Source: a virus (taxonomy: Duplodnaviria; Heunggongvirae; Uroviricota; Caudoviricetes). From it: 64,000 nucleotides of DNA. The notes under the pieces are model-generated. The model was not told the origin of the DNA. It did no database searches and worked only from the letters and a program-made list of their open reading frames with translations. Below are positions 2,994 through 60,834 of this stretch, piece by piece. Numbering within the stretch: position 1 is the first letter of the stretch; the number at the start of each line of letters is the position of its first letter. The position numbers and the translations under genes were made by a program. The stretch lies in the IMG/VR virus record IMGVR_UViG_3300042892_003817. The stretch is one strand, 5' to 3'.

Positions 2994-3404
2994 TTAATCA
3001 TGACTTTTTTCCAACTCTATTAGCTCTTCCCAAAGGTCTTCTACATACCCTCTATCAGCTGAAAACATTAATTGTCTAGTCATTTGATCTTCTAGTCCAA
3101 CCTTCTCTATTATATGTTGCATTGTTTCTCCATCTATCTCCATATGTCTTAACATAGAGATTACTTCTTCTACCATTCCTGGATGTAATTGCATTAACAT
3201 TGTTTCTTCTTGTATGAAGTAAGATTTGAAATAACCTTTCTCACACCAACTAATAACTACCTCTCTTTTATCTTCAGTAGTTAATGTTATGGAATTTGTA
3301 TCATAGACCTCTATAACATCTGCGAAGTCCAATTCAAATTCTCTTTGTGTGCTATTAGAAGCCTGTACGATGTAGTAGTTTACATCTCTAAATAATTTAG
3401 TCAT
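2994..3404 (-). CDS. hypothetical protein (136 aa)
   Basis: ORF. Confidence 0.5.
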   Translation of the reverse strand: MTKLFRDVNYYIVQASNSTQREFELDFADVIEVYDTNSITLTTEDKREVVISWCEKGYFKSYFIQEETMLMQLHPGMVEEVISMLRHMEIDGETMQHIIEKVGLEDQMTRQLMFSADRGYVEDLWEELIELEKSHD

Positions 3405-3430
3405 AGTCTTATTTTTTAAATTAATATTAA

Positions 3431-3613
3431 TTACTCTTGAACATTACATAAATCCTGAGAAAGAATATAGTCATATAAACAATCCATCTTTCTTACAAAA
3501 CTTAAATCAGTCAAATAAGATCGAGATAAAAAACTCTCTAATACATGATCATCTATTCCTCCTAGATCAACATAACCATAATTCAAATCAAAGTACTCTC
3601 TAACTTCTTTCAT
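3431..3613 (-). CDS. hypothetical protein (60 aa)
   Basis: ORF with promoter module 3624-3672. Confidence 0.4.
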   Translation of the reverse strand: MKEVREYFDLNYGYVDLGGIDDHVLESFLSRSYLTDLSFVRKMDCLYDYILSQDLCNVQE

Positions 3614-3740: not shown

Positions 3741-4529
3741 CTATTCAGCTAAAGTGTGCTGAACAATATCTTTACGTAGTCCATGAACTTGATCAATTAT
3801 AGAACTAACGTTTACTTTTTCTTCTTGAGAGGCATTTCCTCCATGAGCCCATTTAAAGACTGCAGTACCTGTCTTTCCTGATTTAGAAATATCAGTTAAT
3901 CTGATGCTTACTACATTCGGAGAGTAGTTCCATTTCAATTGAATATTTCTTCCTTTCTCAAAATCAACTCCCTGCCCTTTCAAATCCATTTCAATCTTTT
4001 CTTTCTCTAAGAAAGTAATCAAATTATCAACTCCACTAATCTCTCTTCCTAAATCTTGCATTTCTTTAAACACTGCATTATATTGCTCCTTGAAAGGAAA
4101 TACAGCTTCATTTGCAGCTTCAACTATTTCATCATGCTTTTCATGAATAATTCCTGCAATCGTTCCTAACATTTGTAATCTCTTCAACTCCCAAGCATCA
4201 ACTCCTTTTGTTGAAGTTGTATAGTAAGATAAATCAATCCCTGTATAAGATCTTTTATCTTTACCTTCTTCAAAATTCCAATTCTCTCTTAAATAAAGGC
4301 TGAATAATTCCTTCTTGTAAGTAAATTCTGGATGAGCCATTTTAAAATAAACAGACCCTCTAGTTACTTCGACTTCTACATCATATGGAAATACTCCATA
4401 AAATCCTACTAAGGCATCTGATAAAGCTTTTTGCTCTCTTACATAGATGTCTCCTCTTTTACTTTCTAATGCTTCTTTCTTAACTGTAAGGATTGCTTTT
4501 TGATCCTCTAATAAATTTAATCTTGTCAT
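3741..4529 (-). CDS. hypothetical protein (262 aa)
   Basis: ORF with promoter module 4541-4590. Confidence 0.55.
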   Translation of the reverse strand: MTRLNLLEDQKAILTVKKEALESKRGDIYVREQKALSDALVGFYGVFPYDVEVEVTRGSVYFKMAHPEFTYKKELFSLYLRENWNFEEGKDKRSYTGIDLSYYTTSTKGVDAWELKRLQMLGTIAGIIHEKHDEIVEAANEAVFPFKEQYNAVFKEMQDLGREISGVDNLITFLEKEKIEMDLKGQGVDFEKGRNIQLKWNYSPNVVSIRLTDISKSGKTGTAVFKWAHGGNASQEEKVNVSSIIDQVHGLRKDIVQHTLAE

Positions 4530-5852: not shown

Positions 5853-6227
5853 CTATTCGTTTAATAAGAAAGCTTTATCTGCCCAAGTCTTAGCATTTAC
5901 AGCTTTATATTGATTGTGATCCATTAGATTTGTATTATAGAACAATTGATTGATTGTTCCTACCTCTACCTTCTCAGCTAACTTCTCATCTAATAAGATT
6001 ACCTTTGTACCTTTCTTAGCAAATACTGTTGTCCAATAGTTAGTCCCTTTACCTTTGAACTGGATAGTCTGAAGAGCTCCTTTCTTCCATCTATTAAGAG
6101 AAGGTATATCAGAACCTATCTCTGTAGCTATCATAAAGCCTGCTGGTACTTTTGTAATGGCCTGGAAGATACCCTCTCTATCTCCTATCCAATTTACTAC
6201 CGTTAAATCTTTGATGTTGTTTATCAT
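5853..6227 (-). CDS. hypothetical protein (124 aa)
   Basis: ORF with promoter module 6237-6288. Confidence 0.5.
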   Translation of the reverse strand: MINNIKDLTVVNWIGDREGIFQAITKVPAGFMIATEIGSDIPSLNRWKKGALQTIQFKGKGTNYWTTVFAKKGTKVILLDEKLAEKVEVGTINQLFYNTNLMDHNQYKAVNAKTWADKAFLLNE

Positions 6228-6336
6228 TTTTTCTATGTTTTAATTATTGATACCTAAATATACGGACTTTATACATACGGTCCAACTCTTATACGTTATT
6301 TATACTCATTATAAATTAAAAAAAAGTTACTAAAAT

Positions 6337-6375
6337 AGTTGCTAGTAACAAAGATCGTTCGTATCTTTAGGTATG
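6337..6375 (+). promoter_or_regulatory. promoter module in PLUS orientation (AGTTGCTAGTAACAAAGATCGTTCGTATCTTTAGGTATG), the only plus-strand copy in the window
   Basis: Exact reverse-complement arrangement of the module used by minus-strand genes. No plus-strand ORF follows it. Confidence 0.5.
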
Positions 6376-6385
6376 TTAGAAGGGA

Positions 6386-6520
6386 ATACGGGGCCTGGCT
6401 TTGAAAGAGAGTCGGAAGAGTAGACGGGCCGGTACGCCATGTTCGTTACTTAAAGCAAAGCTTTAACTTAAACTGTTACTTTAACTTAAAGTGATGCTTT
6501 AACTGAATATTTTACTTAAA
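6386..6520 (+). ncRNA. candidate non-coding or antisense transcript driven by the plus-orientation promoter
   Basis: Segment downstream of the plus promoter is locally GC-rich (gggaatacggggcctggc...gacgggccggtacgcc), has no ORF, and is followed by ttaaagc/ctttaact repeats. Confidence 0.25.
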
Positions 6521-6527
6521 GGAAAGC

Positions 6528-6680
6528 TTTAGATAAAAGGAAAGGGCCCTTGTGAGGCCCCTGCTTGGAAGAGGAGTGCTTCTCCTTCCTGGTGTAGGTC
6601 TTCTTAGACTTCTGAATGGTATGCCGTGAGGCTGCCCATCGCTCTTGCATTGTAATCTGAATCTGTTTCATAGGTATAGG
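6528..6680 (-). CDS. small basic protein (about 50 aa, MKQIQITMQERWAASRHTIQKSKKTYTRKEKH...)
   Basis: ATG at 6678-6680 immediately downstream of ORF 6682..6892. Below the 60-aa cutoff of the ORF track. Confidence 0.3.
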
Positions 6681-6681
6681 T

Positions 6682-6892
6682 TTAATAAAAATACATATTG
6701 TGAACCGTCTGAATAGGAAGCTTAAATTTCTTACCCACTGAGATATTACTCCATTGGTTCCTATTATACATAGTAGGAGTTACTTCAAGTAAGCACCAAA
6801 GAGAAGTTACCGTAAGCAATTTAGCCCTCAGTGTAGGAGAATTATTACATGAACAATCCTTTCCTATTACCTTATTTAATTCCTTTACCATA
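6682..6892 (-). CDS. hypothetical protein (70 aa). The track ORF 6682..7101 is trimmed here to the first ATG downstream of promoter module 6905-6947
   Basis: The upstream part of the track ORF translates the iteron array and promoter module and is implausible as coding sequence. Confidence 0.4.
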
Positions 6893-6904
6893 TGATTATT
6901 TGTT

Positions 6905-6947
6905 TTTATATACCTAAAGATAAGAACCATAGGCCATATAAGCAACT
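6905..6947 (-). promoter_or_regulatory. early promoter module
   Basis: tatacctaaagataagaaccataggccatataagcaact. Confidence 0.5.
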
Positions 6948-7006
6948 CTTTTATAGGCTTTTTACCCCCGAAGGGGATAAGTACCTGGTTTCTACCGGGG
7001 AAAGAA

Positions 7007-7140
7007 ACGGGTTCCAAACAGGTAAAGAGAACGGGTCTCAATTGGGTCACTAGACGGGTAACAAAACGGGTAGCTAGAACGGGTTTGTAACGGGTAACCA
7101 ATCGGGTTACTAGAGAGTGAAACGGGGCTATAGAACGGGT
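7007..7140. repeat. iteron array 1: about 11 copies of (G/A)AACGGGT-like heptamers at roughly 11-12 bp centre-to-centre spacing
   Basis: acgggt at 7007, 7031, 7055, 7066, 7079, 7090, 7135 plus degenerate copies (acaggt, ttgggt, tcgggt, acgggg). Confidence 0.6.
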
Positions 7141-7410
7141 ATCTACTATAGGTTTTCCTTATTATAGAAAAAAACTATTAAGGAGACACACCCGCCACAT
7201 TTTTCCTATCCTTATTTTACCTAGCCTTATCCTCTTTCTTACACATCGTATATACTGTACAGTACCTTTTCTTACCTAGTACTCTATGTCTTTATACTCT
7301 TTGTATGGTTTTTCTACCCTTTATGTTTAATCAAAGTCCTTCACCTTTTACTATGTATCTCAGTAGTTCTCTCTATGTCTCTCCTTATATCTCCCGTACG
7401 TGATACGTAT
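7141..7410. other. 270-bp non-coding polypyrimidine (C/T-rich on the plus strand) AT-rich tract between the two iteron arrays; candidate DNA-unwinding or origin region
   Basis: Strong strand-compositional asymmetry and no ORF, flanked by iterons. Confidence 0.4.
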
Positions 7411-7416
7411 GTATAA

Positions 7417-7468
7417 ACGGGTATCGAACGGGTAGAGAAACGGGTATGGAATGGGTCTATGAATGGGT
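7417..7468. repeat. iteron array 2: five (A)ACGGGT/ATGGGT copies at 11-bp spacing
   Basis: acgggt at 7417, 7428, 7440 and atgggt at 7452, 7463. Confidence 0.55.
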
Positions 7469-7648
7469 CTCTCGCCATCTTTCCAATAGCATTTCTCCTA
7501 TCTTCATCCTGTCTTCTAGGCCCTTTAATTCCTTTATTACCTTAGGTGTCTGTTCTCTTTCCTTTAATTGTTCTCTCCTCTTTACTACCTTTCGTATTAT
7601 ATGATTTGAATTAGGATCCTTTAACTTATTTATTCCCCATACTTCCAT
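7457..7648 (-). CDS. hypothetical protein (63 aa)
   Basis: ORF. Confidence 0.35.
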   Translation of the reverse strand: MEVWGINKLKDPNSNHIIRKVVKRREQLKEREQTPKVIKELKGLEDRMKIGEMLLERWRETHS

Positions 7649-56602: not shown

Positions 56603-56666
56603 AAGTTAGCAATAGCTAACCTACATTGGAGACGAAGGAATTGACCTCATAGTGGATAAAATTTAG

Positions 56667-56739
56667 TGTCCTATACAGGGCTCGAACCTGTGACCTTCTC
56701 GTTATGAGCGAGCTGCTCTCACCATCTGAGCTAAAAGGA
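56667..56739 (-). tRNA. tRNA-Met/Ile2 (anticodon CAT)
   Basis: Cloverleaf read by hand: D-arm GCTCAGATGGTAGAGC, anticodon loop CTCATAA, T-arm ACAGG-TTCGAGC-CCTGT. Confidence 0.7.
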
Positions 56740-56744
56740 CATTA

Positions 56745-56818
56745 GTAGCGAGTGAGGGATTCGAACCCCCGACCTCTAGGTTATGAGCCTAGCGAGATAC
56801 CATCTTCTACCAACTCGC
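56745..56818 (-). tRNA. tRNA-Met/Ile2 (anticodon CAT), second copy with unpaired C1:U72
   Basis: Anticodon arm CTAGG-CTCATAA-CCTAG, T-arm GGGGG-TTCGAAT-CCCTC. Confidence 0.65.
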
Positions 56819-56824
56819 GATATA

Positions 56825-56896
56825 GCGGTCTATGAGAGAATCGAACTCTCATCCCTACCGTGACAGGGTAGTATCCTAGCCGTTGAACGAATAGAC
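56825..56896 (-). tRNA. tRNA-Asp (GTC)
   Basis: Anticodon arm CTACC-CTGTCAC-GGTAG, T-arm GAGAG-TTCGATT-CTCTC. Confidence 0.75.
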
Positions 56897-56901
56897 CTTT
56901 T

Positions 56902-56974
56902 GTGGAGCTACCGGGATTCGAACCCGGAATAACAGAATGCAAATCTATCGTGATGCCAATTTCACTATAGCCCC
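56902..56974 (-). tRNA. tRNA-Ala (TGC)
   Basis: G3:U70 identity pair present; anticodon loop TTTGCAT; T-arm CCGGG-TTCGAAT-CCCGG. Confidence 0.75.
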
Positions 56975-56978
56975 TTTT

Positions 56979-57050
56979 GTACTGCCACGGAGAATCGAAC
57001 TCCGATTTTATGGATGAAAACCATAGGTCCTAGCCGTTAGACGATGGCAG
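56979..57050 (-). tRNA. tRNA-Glu (TTC)
   Basis: Anticodon arm TATGG-TTTTCAT-CCATA; T-arm CGGAG-TTCGATT-CTCCG. Confidence 0.75.
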
Positions 57051-57101
57051 CAAATTGTAGGCGTATGCTCATCACATACTCTTGGGCTCCTACACACCCC
57101 T

Positions 57102-57173
57102 GAGCGACTAGAGAGAATCGAACTCTCATCTTCAGATTGGAAGTCTGAAGTAATGACCATTATACGATAGTCG
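57102..57173 (-). tRNA. tRNA-Gly (TCC)
   Basis: Acceptor GCGACTA/TAGTCGC; anticodon arm TCAGA-CTTCCAA-TCTGA. Confidence 0.75.
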
Positions 57174-57180
57174 CAGTTGA

Positions 57181-57253
57181 GCTTCTGGACGGGATCGAAC
57201 CGACTCTATTCTGGGTTACAAATCCGGTGCACCACCATTTGTGCGTCAGAAGC
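57181..57253 (-). tRNA. tRNA-like, possibly tRNA-Thr (TGT), with a degenerate anticodon stem
   Basis: Good acceptor (GCTTCTG/CAGAAGC), D-arm and T-arm; anticodon loop TTTGTAA, but only 3 of 5 stem pairs. Confidence 0.4.
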
Positions 57254-57328
57254 AGATAATTAGAGCCGGTTTTCGTATCCGTTCTGCAGGTTAGCCCCTG
57301 CTGCTTTACTATAAGCTAACTCTAATTT
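57254..57328 (-). pseudogene. degenerate tRNA-like remnant (acceptor TTAGAGT/GCTCTAA, D-arm GCTT-ATAGTA-AAGC, aberrant 6-nt anticodon loop, decayed T-arm)
   Basis: Hand fold; lacks the TTCGA T-loop. Confidence 0.3.
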
Positions 57329-57402
57329 GTACCCAAGGAGAGACTCGAACTCTCAGTTTACGACTTCTAAGGCCGCCGTGTCTGCCAATTCCACCACTCG
57401 GG
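57329..57402 (-). tRNA. tRNA with anticodon TAG (Leu-like), short variable loop
   Basis: 5' half resembles bacterial tRNA-Leu (GCCCGAGTGGTGGAATTGG...); anticodon loop CTTAGAA; T-arm GAGAG-TTCGAGT-CTCTC. Confidence 0.5.
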
Positions 57403-57497
57403 CATTTGCCGCATGTGCGGCCACTTATCAATCGGTAGCTCCCTCTCGTTGTCCATTTGTGGGTGTAACACATTTGGTAGAGGGTCGAACCTTAAAT

Positions 57498-57568
57498 GAG
57501 GGCAGTGTTGGAATCGAACCAACCTAACAGAGTTTGCAATCCTGTGCCTAACCAATCGGCCAACTGCC
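57498..57568 (-). tRNA. tRNA-Cys (GCA)
   Basis: Anticodon loop TTGCAAA; T-arm GTTGG-TTCGATT-CCAAC; acceptor GGGCAGT/ACTGCCC. Confidence 0.65.
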
Positions 57569-57654
57569 CATTTTCACCTAGCCTGACCTTCCAGACAGTA
57601 CAAGTCGGGATTCTATTGTTTCGCGCGCCGTTTTGTAGTAGGTGATATATTTTA

Positions 57655-57703
57655 CTTTCTTATACCTTAATATATGAAACTATTTCTGGTTTTCCAAACC
57701 TTT
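57655..57703 (-). promoter_or_regulatory. promoter module (TTTCCAAACC variant) positioned to drive tRNA block 1
   Basis: ataccttaatatatgaaactatttctggttttccaaacc; the GGTTTGG -33 element is on the minus strand. Confidence 0.45.
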
Positions 57704-57838
57704 ATTGCAATACTTACAATTATTTTTTTCCTTTTCTGATTGATGGATTCTTTTATTTTCATTACAATACCATTTTTTATCATAAGGAATAAAATTCTCC
57801 CATTTATCATAATATCCTGGCTTCCACTCTTCCATTAT

Positions 57839-58345
57839 TTAAAAGAATAAAAATGTTTCCCATTCTTTAGGTATGTATGTCATACTTCTCATTAACATTA
57901 AATAATGAGGTCTTTTTGGTTCTGGAATTTCCTTACCATATTCCTCTAATGTTAAATCTGCTTTCTCATGATTACATGGTCTACAAGCTGTTACTAAATT
58001 ATCCCAAGCATCTTTTCCTCCTTTTGATTGAGGGATAACATGGTCAAGTGTTAATATTCTTTGATTTGAACTACCACAATAAACACATTCATAATTATCT
58101 CTTCGGTAAATATTCTCTCTTGTTAGAGGTACTTTTTGAATGTTTTGTTTTACATACTTAGCTACTCTAATAATAGAAGGTTTGTAAATGGTTAGTTCAG
58201 GATTAATTAAACTAAATGTTTCTGGATGCTCTGCTACTACTTCAGCATTACCCTTATAAAAAATCACGAACGCTCGTTCGGTACTTATAACTGATCTTGC
58301 TGTAAAGCTTGCATCCACTACTAGTGCTTTTTGATACTTACTCAT
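57839..58345 (-). CDS. HNH homing-type endonuclease inserted between the two tRNA blocks (168 aa)
   Basis: CVYCGSSNQ...LDHVIPQSKGGKDAWDNLVTACRPCNHEK HNH signature. Confidence 0.65.
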   Translation of the reverse strand: MSKYQKALVVDASFTARSVISTERAFVIFYKGNAEVVAEHPETFSLINPELTIYKPSIIRVAKYVKQNIQKVPLTRENIYRRDNYECVYCGSSNQRILTLDHVIPQSKGGKDAWDNLVTACRPCNHEKADLTLEEYGKEIPEPKRPHYLMLMRSMTYIPKEWETFLFF

Positions 58346-58350
58346 GATTT

Positions 58351-58542
58351 TTAATTTAAAGGTTTATACTGTGTTTTTCTGTTGTACTTCCAAGTACGGT
58401 ACTCTCTGTACTTGAAGGCCCATATTCCGGATTTACATTTACTCCAATAGTCTTCAAACCACATTCCACCATCTTTGGATTGTTTTCTTTTTTCTTTTTT
58501 ATACTCTTTCTGAGTATAGTTTTTGATTCTCATCTTGCTCAA
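58351..58542 (-). CDS. small basic protein (63 aa)
   Basis: ORF. Confidence 0.4.
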   Translation of the reverse strand: MSKMRIKNYTQKEYKKEKRKQSKDGGMWFEDYWSKCKSGIWAFKYREYRTWKYNRKTQYKPLN

Positions 58543-58600
58543 ATTTTAGGTTAATAAACCTAATGAGCATCGAATTTCTTTTTCATAATTAATAATTTTG

Positions 58601-58671
58601 CGCAGACCGTAGGAATCGAACCTACCCGTAGCAGTTTTGGAGACCGTACCGACACCTTGTCTGTGACCCGC
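58601..58671 (-). tRNA. tRNA-like with unresolved anticodon (canonical T-arm GTAGG-TTCGATT-CCTAC, acceptor with three G:U pairs, no clean anticodon stem)
   Basis: Hand fold. Confidence 0.3.
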
Positions 58672-58677
58672 TTGTTG

Positions 58678-58749
58678 TACCCCATCCAGGAATCGAACCT
58701 AGAATTAATCTTTAGAAGAGATTCGTTATATCCGTTTAACTAATAGGGC
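58678..58749 (-). tRNA. tRNA-Arg (TCT)
   Basis: Anticodon arm AATCT-CTTCTAA-AGATT (perfect); D-arm GTTA-AACGGATA-TAAC; T-arm CTAGG-TTCGATT-CCTGG. Confidence 0.75.
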
Positions 58750-58909
58750 GGTTAAAATATAATTAGTAAGTTTTATCAGGAATCTGGGATCTAATTTCTT
58801 AGTGCTTCACACACCCTTAGAGAGTTGAGTATAAATACTTATCCTTAGTGTGTACCCTTGCGCAACGTCTCTCCACGTCTTCTTACCTACGCTTTGTAAT
58901 TATATTTTG

Positions 58910-58981
58910 AGGTCTTAGTAGGAGTCGAACCTACGTTCTATCGTTCGTAGCGATAAGTTTTTCCAATTAAACTATAAGACC
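58910..58981 (-). tRNA. tRNA-Arg (ACG)
   Basis: Acceptor GGTCTTA/TAAGACC perfect; anticodon arm TATCG-CTACGAA-CGATA. Confidence 0.75.
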
Positions 58982-59070
58982 AGTTGTAGGATATCGCTTA
59001 ACCTACGATGTTTATATCATTACACATCTTCAATGTCGAACAATTAAAGAGGACATCAGCGATTTTTTTG

Positions 59071-59150
59071 TACCCCTGACTGGAGTCGAACCAGCAAGCC
59101 TGAGCGCCAAGTTTTAAGCCTGGTGTGTTTACCTATTTCACCACAGAGGC
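59071..59150 (-). tRNA. tRNA-Leu (TAA), class II with a long variable arm
   Basis: D-arm GTG-AAATAGGTAAA-CAC; anticodon arm CCAGG-CTTAAAA-CTTGG; 11-nt variable region. Confidence 0.7.
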
Positions 59151-59545
59151 ATGTTGGGTGTAAGGACGGTACCGCCCCGTCTTCTCAAGATTCACAGTCT
59201 TGCGCTTCACTAAAAAGCTTCGAACACCATATAAAATTATACTACTTTAATAACGCTTACTCAATTTTACTACTCTAACGCTTTACCTCATTAAGTCGTT
59301 TTTTGAGAAACGTTTCTTAACTTCCTACCTACCCATATAATTTAGTACCGACTACAAGTTACGCTCTTGTCTGAGAATACTTATGAGATATTCTCGATCC
59401 TAGATCAAGTCGGTAGTTGATAGGGAACCTCTTACCCTATCGCTGTACTATCTGATTTTAATGTGTCTTACCACGGGGCCCCGTTCGTACTTCCTTCTCC
59501 TGCATTCCTTAGATGCGTTGTGAGGACGGTGAGGAGGTTTTTTTG

Positions 59546-59628
59546 AGGAAAGCAGAGGTATCGAACCCCATGCCCGAAGGCACGATACGCTTAGCAAGCG
59601 GTCTCAACTCCTAGTTGATTTACTTTCC
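59546..59628 (-). tRNA. tRNA-Ser (GCT)-like, class II, weak anticodon stem; variable arm is a UGCC-UUCG-GGCA hairpin
   Basis: Acceptor GGAAAGT/GCTTTCC; anticodon loop TTGCTAA. Confidence 0.45.
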
Positions 59629-59633
59629 CTTTG

Positions 59634-59707
59634 TAGGTAATATAGGAATCGAACCTATAACCTCTCACGTATCAGGCGAGTGCTCTAACCAATTGAGCTA
59701 ATTACCT
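59634..59707 (-). tRNA. tRNA-Ile (GAT)
   Basis: D-arm GCTC-AATTGGTTA-GAGC; anticodon arm CTCGC-CTGATAC-GTGAG; T-arm ATAGG-TTCGATT-CCTAT. Confidence 0.75.
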
Positions 59708-59713
59708 ATTTTG

Positions 59714-59785
59714 CGGGCCTGGAAGGAATCGAACCTTCATAAGATGATTAACAGTCATCCGTAATAGCCGTTATACGACAAACCC
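59714..59785 (-). tRNA. tRNA-Asn (GTT)
   Basis: Anticodon arm GATGA-CTGTTAA-TCATC; T-arm GAAGG-TTCGATT-CCTTC. Confidence 0.75.
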
Positions 59786-59823
59786 AAGAAAGCGTTACTA
59801 CCGTTATACTACCGCGCCGCTAA

Positions 59824-59862
59824 CGGCCCGGATGGGACTCGAACCCATACCTCTCTACTTCG
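59824..59862 (-). pseudogene. tRNA 3'-half fragment (T-arm ATGGG-TTCGAGT-CCCAT plus acceptor 3' strand CCGGGCC-G) with no matching 5' half
   Basis: Only 39 nt lie between tRNA-Phe and the next spacer. Confidence 0.35.
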
Positions 59863-59935
59863 TGGACCCTGTAGGAATCGAACCTACTCCTCTAGTTCTT
59901 CAGACTAGCGTACGCACCAGCTATACCAAAGGTCC
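59863..59935 (-). tRNA. tRNA-Phe (GAA)
   Basis: Anticodon arm CTAGT-CTGAAGA-ACTAG (perfect); T-arm GTAGG-TTCGATT-CCTAC. Confidence 0.75.
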
Positions 59936-59997
59936 ATTGTCTCCCGTCACTCGTATACAAGCCATGGCATTACGGGAGCGATGTTATTCCATATTTG

Positions 59998-60078
59998 TGG
60001 GACACTGTGGAATCGAACCACACCTTCTTACAGAACGATTTTACAGACCGCTTATCACACCAGTGACTGAAGCATCCC
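59998..60078 (-). tRNA. tRNA-Tyr (GTA), class II
   Basis: Anticodon arm GCGGT-CTGTAAA-ATCGT; 12-nt variable arm; T-arm TGTGG-TTCGATT-CCACA. Confidence 0.6.
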
Positions 60079-60084
60079 AATTTG

Positions 60085-60156
60085 ATCATTCTACAGGAAT
60101 CGAACCTGCTTCTCCACCCTCCGCGGGCAGCGTAGTCACCAATCTACCAAGAACGA
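60085..60156 (-). tRNA. tRNA with anticodon CGG (Pro-like), non-canonical G33 and U1:A72
   Basis: D-arm GTAG-ATTGGTGA-CTAC; anticodon loop CGCGGAG; T-arm GCAGG-TTCGATT-CCTGT. Confidence 0.45.
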
Positions 60157-60255
60157 AACTATAACAAGCTTTCATCGGCAAATTAATAACTCATAATAGA
60201 CTCCATATAGACTTGAAAATACTTGCCGGTATTTTACTTGCTACCCAGAATTTTG

Positions 60256-60326
60256 TACCTCGTAGTAGAATCGAACTACTGCCATTTCCATGTAAAAGAA
60301 ATACGCTCCCATTACGCCAACGAGGC
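60256..60326 (-). tRNA. tRNA-Val (TAC)
   Basis: Anticodon arm TTTCT-TTTACAT-GGAAA; T-arm AGTAG-TTCGATT-CTACT. Confidence 0.6.
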
Positions 60327-60427
60327 TGGTGCTACACCTGATCACAACTAACAAGCATATTGGCTTATTACTTGATCTTACAACAGCTTTTAACTGAGAG
60401 ATTGTAAGGTTGTGTATGTAGCTTTTG

Positions 60428-60499
60428 TACCCCCACCAAGAATCGAACTTGGATTCCTATATTAAAAGTATAGTACTTTAGCCGTTAAGTTATAGGGGC
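60428..60499 (-). tRNA. tRNA-Lys (TTT)
   Basis: Anticodon arm CTATA-CTTTTAA-TATAG; D-arm ACTT-AACGGCTA-AAGT. Confidence 0.75.
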
Positions 60500-60505
60500 A
60501 ATTCG

Positions 60506-60581
60506 TCGGGTAAGCAGGATTCGAACCTGCGTGCTCTAGCGTCCAAGGCCAGCGAGATAAACCAGACTCCTCTACTACCCG
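60506..60581 (-). tRNA. tRNA-Pro (TGG)
   Basis: C1:G72; anticodon arm CTGGC-CTTGGAC-GCTAG; T-arm GCAGG-TTCGAAT-CCTGC. Confidence 0.7.
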
Positions 60582-60590
60582 AAATTATTG

Positions 60591-60662
60591 TTGGCTTACT
60601 AGGATTCGAACCTAGACTAAAACAGTCAAAGTGTTTTGTGCTAACCGTTACACTATAAGCCA
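60591..60662 (-). tRNA. tRNA-Gln (TTG)
   Basis: U1:A72; anticodon arm AAACA-CTTTGAC-TGTTT; T-arm CTAGG-TTCGAAT-CCTAG. Confidence 0.75.
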
Positions 60663-60668
60663 ATATTG

Positions 60669-60752
60669 AGGAAGACATGGGAATCGAACCCACAACGGTG
60701 TTACCCGCTACTTGTTTTCAAGACAAGCTCCTCGTCCATTCGGCCGCCTTCC
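60669..60752 (-). tRNA. tRNA-Ser (TGA), class II
   Basis: Anticodon arm CTTGT-CTTGAAA-ACAAG (perfect); long variable hairpin; T-arm GTGGG-TTCGATT-CCCAT. Confidence 0.7.
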
Positions 60753-60789: not shown

Positions 60790-60834
60790 TTATTTATATA
60801 CCTAAAGATACGATCTTTAATTCTTTCTAGCAAC
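60790..60834 (-). promoter_or_regulatory. promoter module positioned to drive tRNA block 2
   Basis: tatacctaaagatacgatctttaattctttctagcaact, immediately upstream (minus sense) of tRNA-Ser(TGA). Confidence 0.5.

Follow-up and report, generated by a model that had tools for sequence, protein, structure and literature searches.

The stretch of DNA considered here, 64,000 nucleotides (nt) from the genome of a tailed phage (Caudoviricetes; IMG/VR record IMGVR_UViG_3300042892_003817) and called the window below, carries a lone plus-strand promoter copy at 6337-6375. Behind it lie the probable gene of a small structured RNA, an array of palindromes, two small convergent genes and two clusters of short repeats, or iterons. 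All credible (non-shadow) open reading frames (ORFs) of at least 90 amino acids (aa) in the 64 kb are on the minus strand, as are all 21 transfer RNA (tRNA) genes found by ARAGORN (56666-60752), and no plus-strand ORF of at least 30 aa was found between 5586 and 6892. A first-pass annotation of the same DNA had already described the promoter copy as the only one of its orientation in a segment devoid of plus-strand genes, and both observations hold.

The Flavobacterium phage vB_FspM_immuto (immuto below), a 160-kb myovirus, is a relative of the window at about 80% nucleotide identity. Homologues of the locus were collected by exact-word scans of viral contigs, by a scan of metagenome contigs (at least 120 rows) and by retrieval through a neighbouring protein; this last search used the small basic protein only and is independent of the RNA sequence. 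Homologous contigs carry L-numbers, L001 being immuto. All family figures (106, 112 or 124 members, and more than 100 variants) are among the matches listed, and counts for the module as a whole are from the 29 loci with at least 1.4 kb on each side of the RNA.

The promoter and the structured core

With at most one mismatch, the 13-nt promoter core TANNTTTAGGTAT occurs 29 times in the 64 kb, against about four times expected by chance; 28 of these matches are on the minus strand and one is on the plus strand (6362-6374). When 24 strict copies are aligned, the one at 6337-6375 is again the sole plus-strand example, and its sequence agrees with the consensus of the 23 minus-strand copies, which precede ORFs and the tRNA cluster. 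It holds the full consensus, namely an A-rich upstream part, AGTTGCT (AAAAtAGTTGCT), 17 variable nt, TTCg and TATCTTTAGGTAT. Promoters of Bacteroidota sigma-A have a -33 TTG and a -7 TAnnTTTG. The plus-strand copy is predicted to be of this type, with TTG at 6340-6342 followed after 19 nt by the -7 box TATCTTTA at 6362-6369, which is extended to GGTAT at 6374. Transcription is predicted to start at about 6375-6380. A promoter of the same type lies at a fixed distance upstream of the RNA in 116 of 124 family members.

The surroundings of the copies can also be compared. Minus-strand copies are followed by an AT-rich leader, CAATAATTAAAACA, and then by ATG, and the plus-strand copy is followed by a GC-rich stretch without an ORF. 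The local GC-richness remarked on in the first pass is readily confirmed, with a GC content of 0.49 and a GC skew of +0.35 at 6350-6449 versus about 0.33 and about -0.2 for the window. One minus-strand copy (60798-60810) lies directly upstream of the 21-tRNA cluster, and this promoter class therefore also drives stable-RNA genes. A subset of minus-strand promoters (2412-2968, 3635, 12442 and others) have the near-identical spacer AGTTGCTAGTTACAAAGTTAGTTCA, and that of the plus-strand copy is AGTTGCTAGTAACAAAGATCGTTCG; the sharing of spacers suggests recent duplication or gene conversion.

The structured core of the RNA, about 70 nt long (6384..6444, plus strand), is delimited by a covariance model, by covariation and by conservation. 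It comprises a closing stem, P1 (6384-6391 with 6437-6444), and a hairpin, P2 (6396-6402 with 6408-6414, loop GAAAG), which are separated by an asymmetric internal loop. The 5′ strand of this loop is GGCC (6392-6395) and its 3′ strand is the 22-nt sequence GAAGAGUAGACGGGCCGGUACG (6415-6436). Throughout the family GGCC stands opposite GAAGAGUAGACGG-NNN-GGUAC-N, near-invariant save for three or four N positions, and GAGUAGAC is a segment of the same loop.

A hairpin with compensatory changes was recovered by RNAalifold from 25 diverse members. The covariance model of P1 and P2, to which 106 members were aligned, has a single match in the window, at 6376-6457 (90.9 bits). P2 is 96% paired and both sides have changed in four of its five pairs (CG, UA, AU and GC). 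P1 is 75% paired and both sides have changed in five of seven pairs (for example CG 38, GC 22 and GU 14), its exchanges being CG with GC and UA with AU. Sliding the partners by one to three columns gives a pairing of 34-48% versus 84% for the actual structure, and the observed covariation scores were attained in none of 500 shuffles. We regard the covariation support as strong for P2 and as moderate for P1, for which it is only moderate because the alignment had been fitted to the model. Covariation-aware folding of homologues had been recommended in the first-pass annotation, and it thus turned up compensatory changes; the helices that they support are P1 and P2, however, and not the two potential stems that had been quoted there.

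Pairs of G with U are frequent in these helices (U.G 99, G.U 38, 62 and 34 of 103 at individual pairs). They would be A.C on the other strand, and the folding strand is therefore the plus strand of the promoter. Average-product-corrected mutual information was used to look for more pairs, pseudoknots and alternative pairings, and only the P2 pairs stand out. Folding of the single sequence at 6376-6575 was uninformative (z = -1.1 for the plus strand, -2.9 for the minus), and the fold of lowest free energy for the core (-18.2 kcal/mol) is not the one supported by covariation (-8.4). RNAalifold further proposed a GGGCC/GGGCC helix. This helix, or its GGCC/GGCC variant, is 83% paired, with zero compensatory changes and with departures that are all broken pairs; a GGCC/GGCC mini-helix inside the loop is thus possible, but has no compensatory changes behind it. 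A promoter, covariation in both P1 and P2 and the lack of a plus-strand ORF are what is expected of an independent structured small-RNA gene, although the terminator at its 3′ end is weak in the window. It is highly probable that the locus is a promoter-driven, structured and strongly constrained small RNA gene.

The RNA family and its identity

The window is identical to immuto at every base from 6355 to 6532 (178 consecutive positions), whereas the flanks are 60-80% identical. More than 100 distinct variants of the RNA were found in viral and metagenome contigs from freshwater, estuarine and marine sources, and GGGCCUG, CGGAAGAGUAGACGG and GGUAC are invariant blocks across them; about 40 nt of the RNA are nearly invariant. 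A scan of 185,579 bacterial and archaeal species, each represented by one genome, yielded a single true match, a 3.3-kb contig binned as 'uncultured bacterium' whose sequence is that of the phage locus. No host-encoded copy of the RNA was found among these species, and no cultured phage besides immuto was found to carry it. The near-absence from bacterial genomes, together with the presence in immuto, indicates a phage element rather than a host gene. The association with related phages does not depend on the RNA having been searched for: contigs retrieved through the small basic ORF (L019-L024, L027 and L029) carry the element, and it was a lack of the inverted promoter module in related phages that the first-pass annotation had named as evidence against its proposal.

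No match to any of the 4227 families of Rfam 15 was found in 6200-7200 at gathering thresholds, and permissive filters (E<=10) gave only chance-level matches of 12-20 bits, versus thresholds of 39-100. This comparison took in Flavo-1, 6S-Flavo, riboswitches, small ribozymes and counter-transcribed RNAs (ctRNAs). Neither ARAGORN nor Rfam RF00005 places a tRNA or a transfer-messenger RNA near 6.4 kb; elsewhere in the window, Rfam adds a weak tRNA at 57180-57253 (35.9 bits) that has no ARAGORN counterpart. A search of the accessible literature found no description of a Flavobacterium-phage non-coding RNA of this sort. The family is thus previously undescribed, being in neither Rfam 15 nor the searchable literature. 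Phage small RNAs adjoining origin-like regions have precedents; the fold, the wide distribution and the fixed coupling to palindromes and iterons are new.

Two helices around a large invariant asymmetric loop are a typical architecture of aptamers and ribozymes, and in this family a variable region and a terminator follow the core. The RNA could accordingly be riboswitch-like or self-cleaving, with the loop as a pocket or an active site, and with an output that is either termination versus antisense read-through or the formation of a defined 3′ end. We consider this highly improbable. The 64 kb contain no plus-strand gene to be controlled, so that the aptamer upstream of a same-strand gene that is characteristic of riboswitches is lacking, as are mutually exclusive pairings: the mutual-information scan found no conserved alternative (anti-terminator) pairing. 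The failure of all Rfam families to match even with permissive filters also speaks against it, and the geometry of the module would be left unexplained.

Complementarity was considered as well. No target complementary to the invariant loop was found on the relevant strand of the window. A resemblance of GACGGGCGG..GUAC to the complement of positions 1392-1407 of 16S ribosomal RNA was dismissed, as the four middle positions vary freely, and a 10-nt similarity at 6567-6576 was rejected, as it is not conserved in immuto.

The locus carries a protein annotation in immuto. GenBank lists immuto26A_125 (QQO91804.1; L001 4616-4714), a hypothetical protein of 32 aa that is antisense to the promoter and core and corresponds to the minus strand of window 6342-6440. 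Its ATG is lost in other clades of the RNA family, and the annotation is for this reason very probably spurious.

Several contigs carry two copies of promoter plus core. These include L027 (3120-3357) and L029 (3120-3363), and also L011, L105, L178 and L212; the paired copies are either in tandem, about 145 nt apart, or separated by 0.5-1 kb, and they differ in P2, which is of the types GGCUUU..AGAGUC and GGCAC..UGUC. The unrelated contigs L031-L033 (94-120 kb), which have a weak match to the small basic ORF, contain downstream of it tRNA-like genes and a conserved GC-rich non-coding stretch (..AAGTCGCATTACGAGCCTGATGGGAGAGG..) adjoining the matched ORF; this stretch is unrelated to the RNA family described here. 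A paper on 7-deazaguanine DNA modifications in phages (PMC10516641) names vB_FspM_immuto 13 times, and the phage group of immuto may have modified guanines.

Palindromes, iterons and convergent genes

Immediately after the core come four TTAAAG-N5-CTTTAA units (6449..6533, with starts at 6449, 6467, 6485 and 6515 and a spacing of 18 nt), which are the ttaaagc/ctttaact repeats recognised in the first pass. Such units occur nowhere else in the window. Family-wide, the half-sites of the palindromes are invariant and the 5-nt spacers are variable, and in the 29 loci there are 74 units downstream of the RNA and none upstream. In a second clade they also flank the iterons, at +400 to +820, and those of L105 and L212 are located beyond a minus-strand promoter. 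Because palindromes are found outside the transcription unit and around iterons in other clades, we assign them to the iteron module as elements of the DNA rather than as hairpins required in the RNA. An interpretation of the array as tandem RNA hairpins, acting as a sponge or in the manner of ToxI-like repeats, was set aside for the same reason.

This behaviour of the palindromes could be extended to the locus as a whole, which would then be a DNA-only element, such as a hairpin serving as a single-strand initiation or primosome site, or a set of protein-binding sites, with the promoter match being incidental or serving to open the DNA. Structured single-strand initiation sites are carried by the oriV of RSF1010 and by similar iteron origins. 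However, a DNA element would not account for the maintained distance and orientation of the promoter in the family members, for helices rich in G.U pairs on the transcribed strand or for terminators after the core, and we hold this explanation to be the least probable of those considered.

Iteron cluster 1 (6983..7142, plus strand) consists of about 12 (A)ACGGGT-like heptamers at a spacing of 11-12 bp, and cluster 2 (7416..7470, plus strand) of five copies. The intervening stretch of about 270 bp (7143-7415) is pyrimidine-rich on the plus strand, with a GC skew reaching -0.64, and contains no credible ORF. Nine of the ten exact copies of AACGGGT in the 64 kb are within the iteron region. Short repeats at helical spacing beside a compositionally asymmetric stretch are a hallmark of iteron origins, and we therefore read the module as a replication origin. 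As judged from its sequence, the iteron region is a candidate origin; alternatively it may be a pac, centromere-like, partition or regulatory site. GC skew over the whole window revealed no polarity switch, which is attributable to all genes being on one strand.

The position of the iterons relative to the RNA is strikingly uniform. Counted in the orientation of the RNA, the 29 loci have 259 copies of the hexamer ACGG[G/T]T downstream and none upstream. A cluster of ACGG[GT]T is present downstream of the RNA in 26 of them and upstream in none, the best iteron window is downstream in all 29, and the distance from the core to the start of the cluster is 410-760 nt. The window and its clade have ACGGGT as consensus, and another clade has ACGGTT. 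In relatives where the small basic ORF is present but the RNA is missing, the iterons are missing too. RNA gene, palindromes and iterons form, in this order, a polar module that is co-inherited, and the RNA is transcribed toward the iterons and against the neighbouring genes. The connection to an iteron region made in the first-pass annotation is in this respect well founded. A divergent example is L157, a 153-kb contig in which six 19-nt tandem repeats, CTTTTTCCTTGATAGAGTG (3402-3510), replace the TTAAAG palindromes, and in which downstream repeats at 4050-4147 are of a different sequence, similar to GGGAAGA.GCCGTGAGGA. This suggests that modules were swapped and the architecture was kept.

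Two minus-strand ORFs occupy the gap between the RNA and the iterons in the window. The first encodes a small basic protein of 51 aa (MKQIQITMQERWAASRH...) that is conserved in relatives; its coordinates are 6516..6671, and not 6528..6680 as first given. The second is a 69-aa ORF (MVKELNKVIGKDCSCN...) with a minus-strand promoter at about 6910-6950, and it extends over 6682..6891 rather than to 6892. Pfam and PHROG searches with six neighbouring ORFs, including these two, gave no useful match. The small basic ORF is a convergent neighbour and not a part of the module, and it is also found in phages that have neither the RNA nor the iterons. Genes between RNA and iterons are unrelated across clades (a 51-aa basic and a 69-aa ORF here, a 114-aa ORF elsewhere), and opposite-strand ORFs cover both flanks of the RNA in all 25 loci with enough flank.

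The 3′ end of the transcript varies among family members. In 55 of 112 members the core is followed, within 350 nt, by a same-strand hairpin with a U-run; in this half of the family the terminator is about 100-250 nt out, at the extreme 3′ end of the convergent gene. In the clade of immuto the hairpin is a bidirectional terminator common to the RNA and the convergent small ORF. Other members (L027b and L029b) have a U-run directly after P1, and this minimal version implies that the core of about 70 nt is the functional unit. In the window, the GC-rich hairpin at which convergent transcripts meet (6542..6562, both strands) is followed on the minus strand by a T-run, giving a terminator-like call, and on the plus strand by a degenerate U-run. 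Immuto (L001 4817-4845) and most relatives have a clean plus-strand U-run, GGGCCC..GAGCCCTTTTTCTT. The hairpin of the window (6541-6588) and of L019 and L020 reads GGCCCCTGCTTGG with a degenerate U-tract, which results from a different C-terminal end of the small ORF. The shared hairpin is followed in the window by a second one, GGAAGAGGAG..CUCCUUCC. The transcript of the window phage probably runs through the four palindromic units to the hairpin at 6542-6562, for a predicted length of roughly 170-190 nt. Given the degenerate U-tract, however, its 3′ end is uncertain, and read-through could produce RNA antisense to 6516..6671.

The first-pass annotation had proposed that the transcript is a regulatory antisense or small RNA directed against the two small genes. 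A non-coding, structured RNA is what we find, but antisense control of these ORFs does not emerge as its conserved role. By that model, cis-antisense pairing or transcriptional interference would affect 6516..6671, 6682..6891 and the promoter at about 6910-6950, much as lambda oop acts on cII. The arrangement is indeed convergent, the degenerate U-tract in the window, L019 and L020 makes read-through plausible, a minus-strand promoter in L105 fires back across the RNA gene, and pO of lambda interferes with convergent transcription from pR (PMC3985674). Nevertheless, the conserved part is a fold that lies outside genes and is the complement of nothing, and the overlap with 6516..6671 is limited to the palindromes and terminator, unlike that of an oop-type cis-antisense RNA. 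Other clades have an unchanged RNA beside unrelated downstream genes, a canonical same-strand terminator is found at the 3′ end of the neighbouring gene in about half of the members, and among L025-L030 the small basic ORF is found without the RNA. Since the core overlaps no gene and the downstream genes change, antisense action is improbable as the conserved function, although antisense read-through may be a local effect in the window phage.

Possible roles of the RNA

The consistent place of the RNA upstream of the iteron cluster makes an origin-linked RNA more probable than a simple antisense regulator. We propose that the RNA is origin-associated and serves as a primer, an activator or an initiator-binding regulator, and from the sequence evidence we would assign this a probability of roughly 0.45-0.5. 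The plus-strand promoter would drive a small non-coding RNA that is the first element of the polar module; this RNA would be made early by host RNA polymerase, and its invariant loop or its 3′ end would mediate its action at the origin. For example, it could be a primer or an R-loop-forming activator transcript, as are ColE1 RNA II or the transcripts of T4 and T7 origins. Alternatively, it could be a regulator whose invariant loop binds the initiation machinery. Antisense pairing with the two small ORFs would play no part in either mechanism. The features that bear on a primer or an R-loop are indirect: the RNA points toward the iterons, is G-rich and is followed by the AT-rich palindrome array, but terminators ahead of the iterons argue against transcription running directly into them.

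Phage lambda offers the nearest documented parallel. Its convergent promoter pO and short oop RNA, beside the iterons of ori-lambda, modulate the initiation of replication, and oop is implicated in tuning this step as well as in antisense effects on its convergent neighbour (PMC3985674, PMC3349717). The likeness lies in a short non-coding RNA that has its own promoter, runs against an operon and is located a few hundred bases from iterons. Differences are also apparent, because oop, at 77 nt, is little more than a terminator hairpin and overlaps cII at the 3′ end of that gene, whereas the RNA of the window has a two-helix fold with an invariant loop and lies outside genes. Moreover, oop is transcribed away from the iterons and the RNA of the window toward them. 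No similarity in sequence or by Rfam was found between the two.

Other transcripts at origins provide further models. ColE1 has its primer RNA II, T4 has oriF and oriG as well as the iteron-bearing oriE, which is reported to combine an early transcript with short iterons, and T7 has origins made of a promoter plus an unwinding element. As in these systems, a promoter about 0.5 kb upstream points to the presumed initiation region, and a folded G-rich RNA is followed by an AT-rich segment. However, the RNA of the window family is stopped before the iterons in about half of its members, ColE1 has no iterons, and R-loop formation or RNase H processing of this RNA is a proposal only. We know of no origin RNA of ColE1, T4 or T7 that has a 40-nt invariant loop conserved across distant phages. 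The antisense RNAs that control plasmid copy number, such as CopA of R1, RNA I of ColE1 and RNA I/II of pT181, are fully complementary to a rep messenger RNA or to a primer. Our RNA resembles them as a small structured RNA beside a replication region and opposite to neighbouring genes, but its core overlaps no gene and the neighbouring genes vary. The pRNA of phi29, which is restricted to phi29-like podoviruses, is likewise a structured phage RNA (about 120-170 nt) with an early promoter, and its gene adjoins a cis-acting end or site of the DNA; the two RNAs are alike in neither sequence nor structure, however, and nothing ties the iterons of the window to packaging.

The main rival to an origin-linked role is a free-standing, trans-acting small RNA. 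Such an RNA could be part of a ribonucleoprotein, a sponge or decoy for a protein (for example one of host defence, or an RNA-binding protein) or a base-pairing regulator, and its proximity to iterons would be inherited synteny. This possibility gains from the self-contained fold with its own promoter and often its own terminator, and from loop nucleotides that are invariant like those of protein-binding RNAs. It gains as well from the extra tandem or dispersed copies, each with a promoter, which suggest a dosage effect, and from the minimal L027b/L029b version, which ends in a U-run right behind P1. We nevertheless regard it as rather unlikely: the polarity and distance of the iterons persist although the intervening genes have been replaced, RNA and iterons are present together and absent together, and no target complementary to the invariant loop was found in the window.

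Several observations weigh against an origin-associated role. About half of the members are terminated well before the iterons, and 0.4-0.7 kb of opposite-strand genes lie between, so that the iterons are probably beyond the reach of the transcript itself. In some genomes the RNA is present twice, with one copy more than 1 kb from the iterons, and an ACGG[GT]T cluster is lacking from three of the 29 loci (L151, L157 and L171), of which L157 has repeats of another kind. Packaging, partition or regulation could be the function of the iterons instead. Synteny among related phages is not independent, and much of it could be due to shared ancestry. An invariant internal loop would fit a trans-acting RNA that binds a protein or a ligand and needs no origin. 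Finally, a comparison of cognate with non-cognate duplex energies for P1 was not significant (p = 0.115); the strands of P1 are purine-rich and pyrimidine-rich throughout the family.

If the origin-associated reading is nonetheless correct, it could be taken one step further. The RNA might be an obligatory, sequence-specific cofactor, and RNA, palindromes and iterons might together be a portable 'RNA-dependent origin cassette' of many Flavobacteriia phages, in which the initiator or the primase-helicase machinery would bind the invariant loop, or in which the fold would deliver a defined primer. We offer this extension as a doubtful one. To our knowledge, such an organisation of an origin has not been described for tailed phages.

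For phages of Bacteroidota, very little has been charted of either replication origins or non-coding RNAs. The compact RNA described here occurs in phage contigs from freshwater, estuarine and marine samples, and its position and polarity link it to an iteron cluster. RNA databases gain a new family from it, and a very probably spurious coding-sequence annotation can be corrected. Phage immuto, growing on Flavobacterium sp. LMO8, provides a cultured system for the module. Conservation of this degree points to a partner that is specific and probably important, even should the RNA act in trans. If the link to the iterons is functional, the RNA would be a testable handle on how DNA replication is started or tuned in large Flavobacterium phages.

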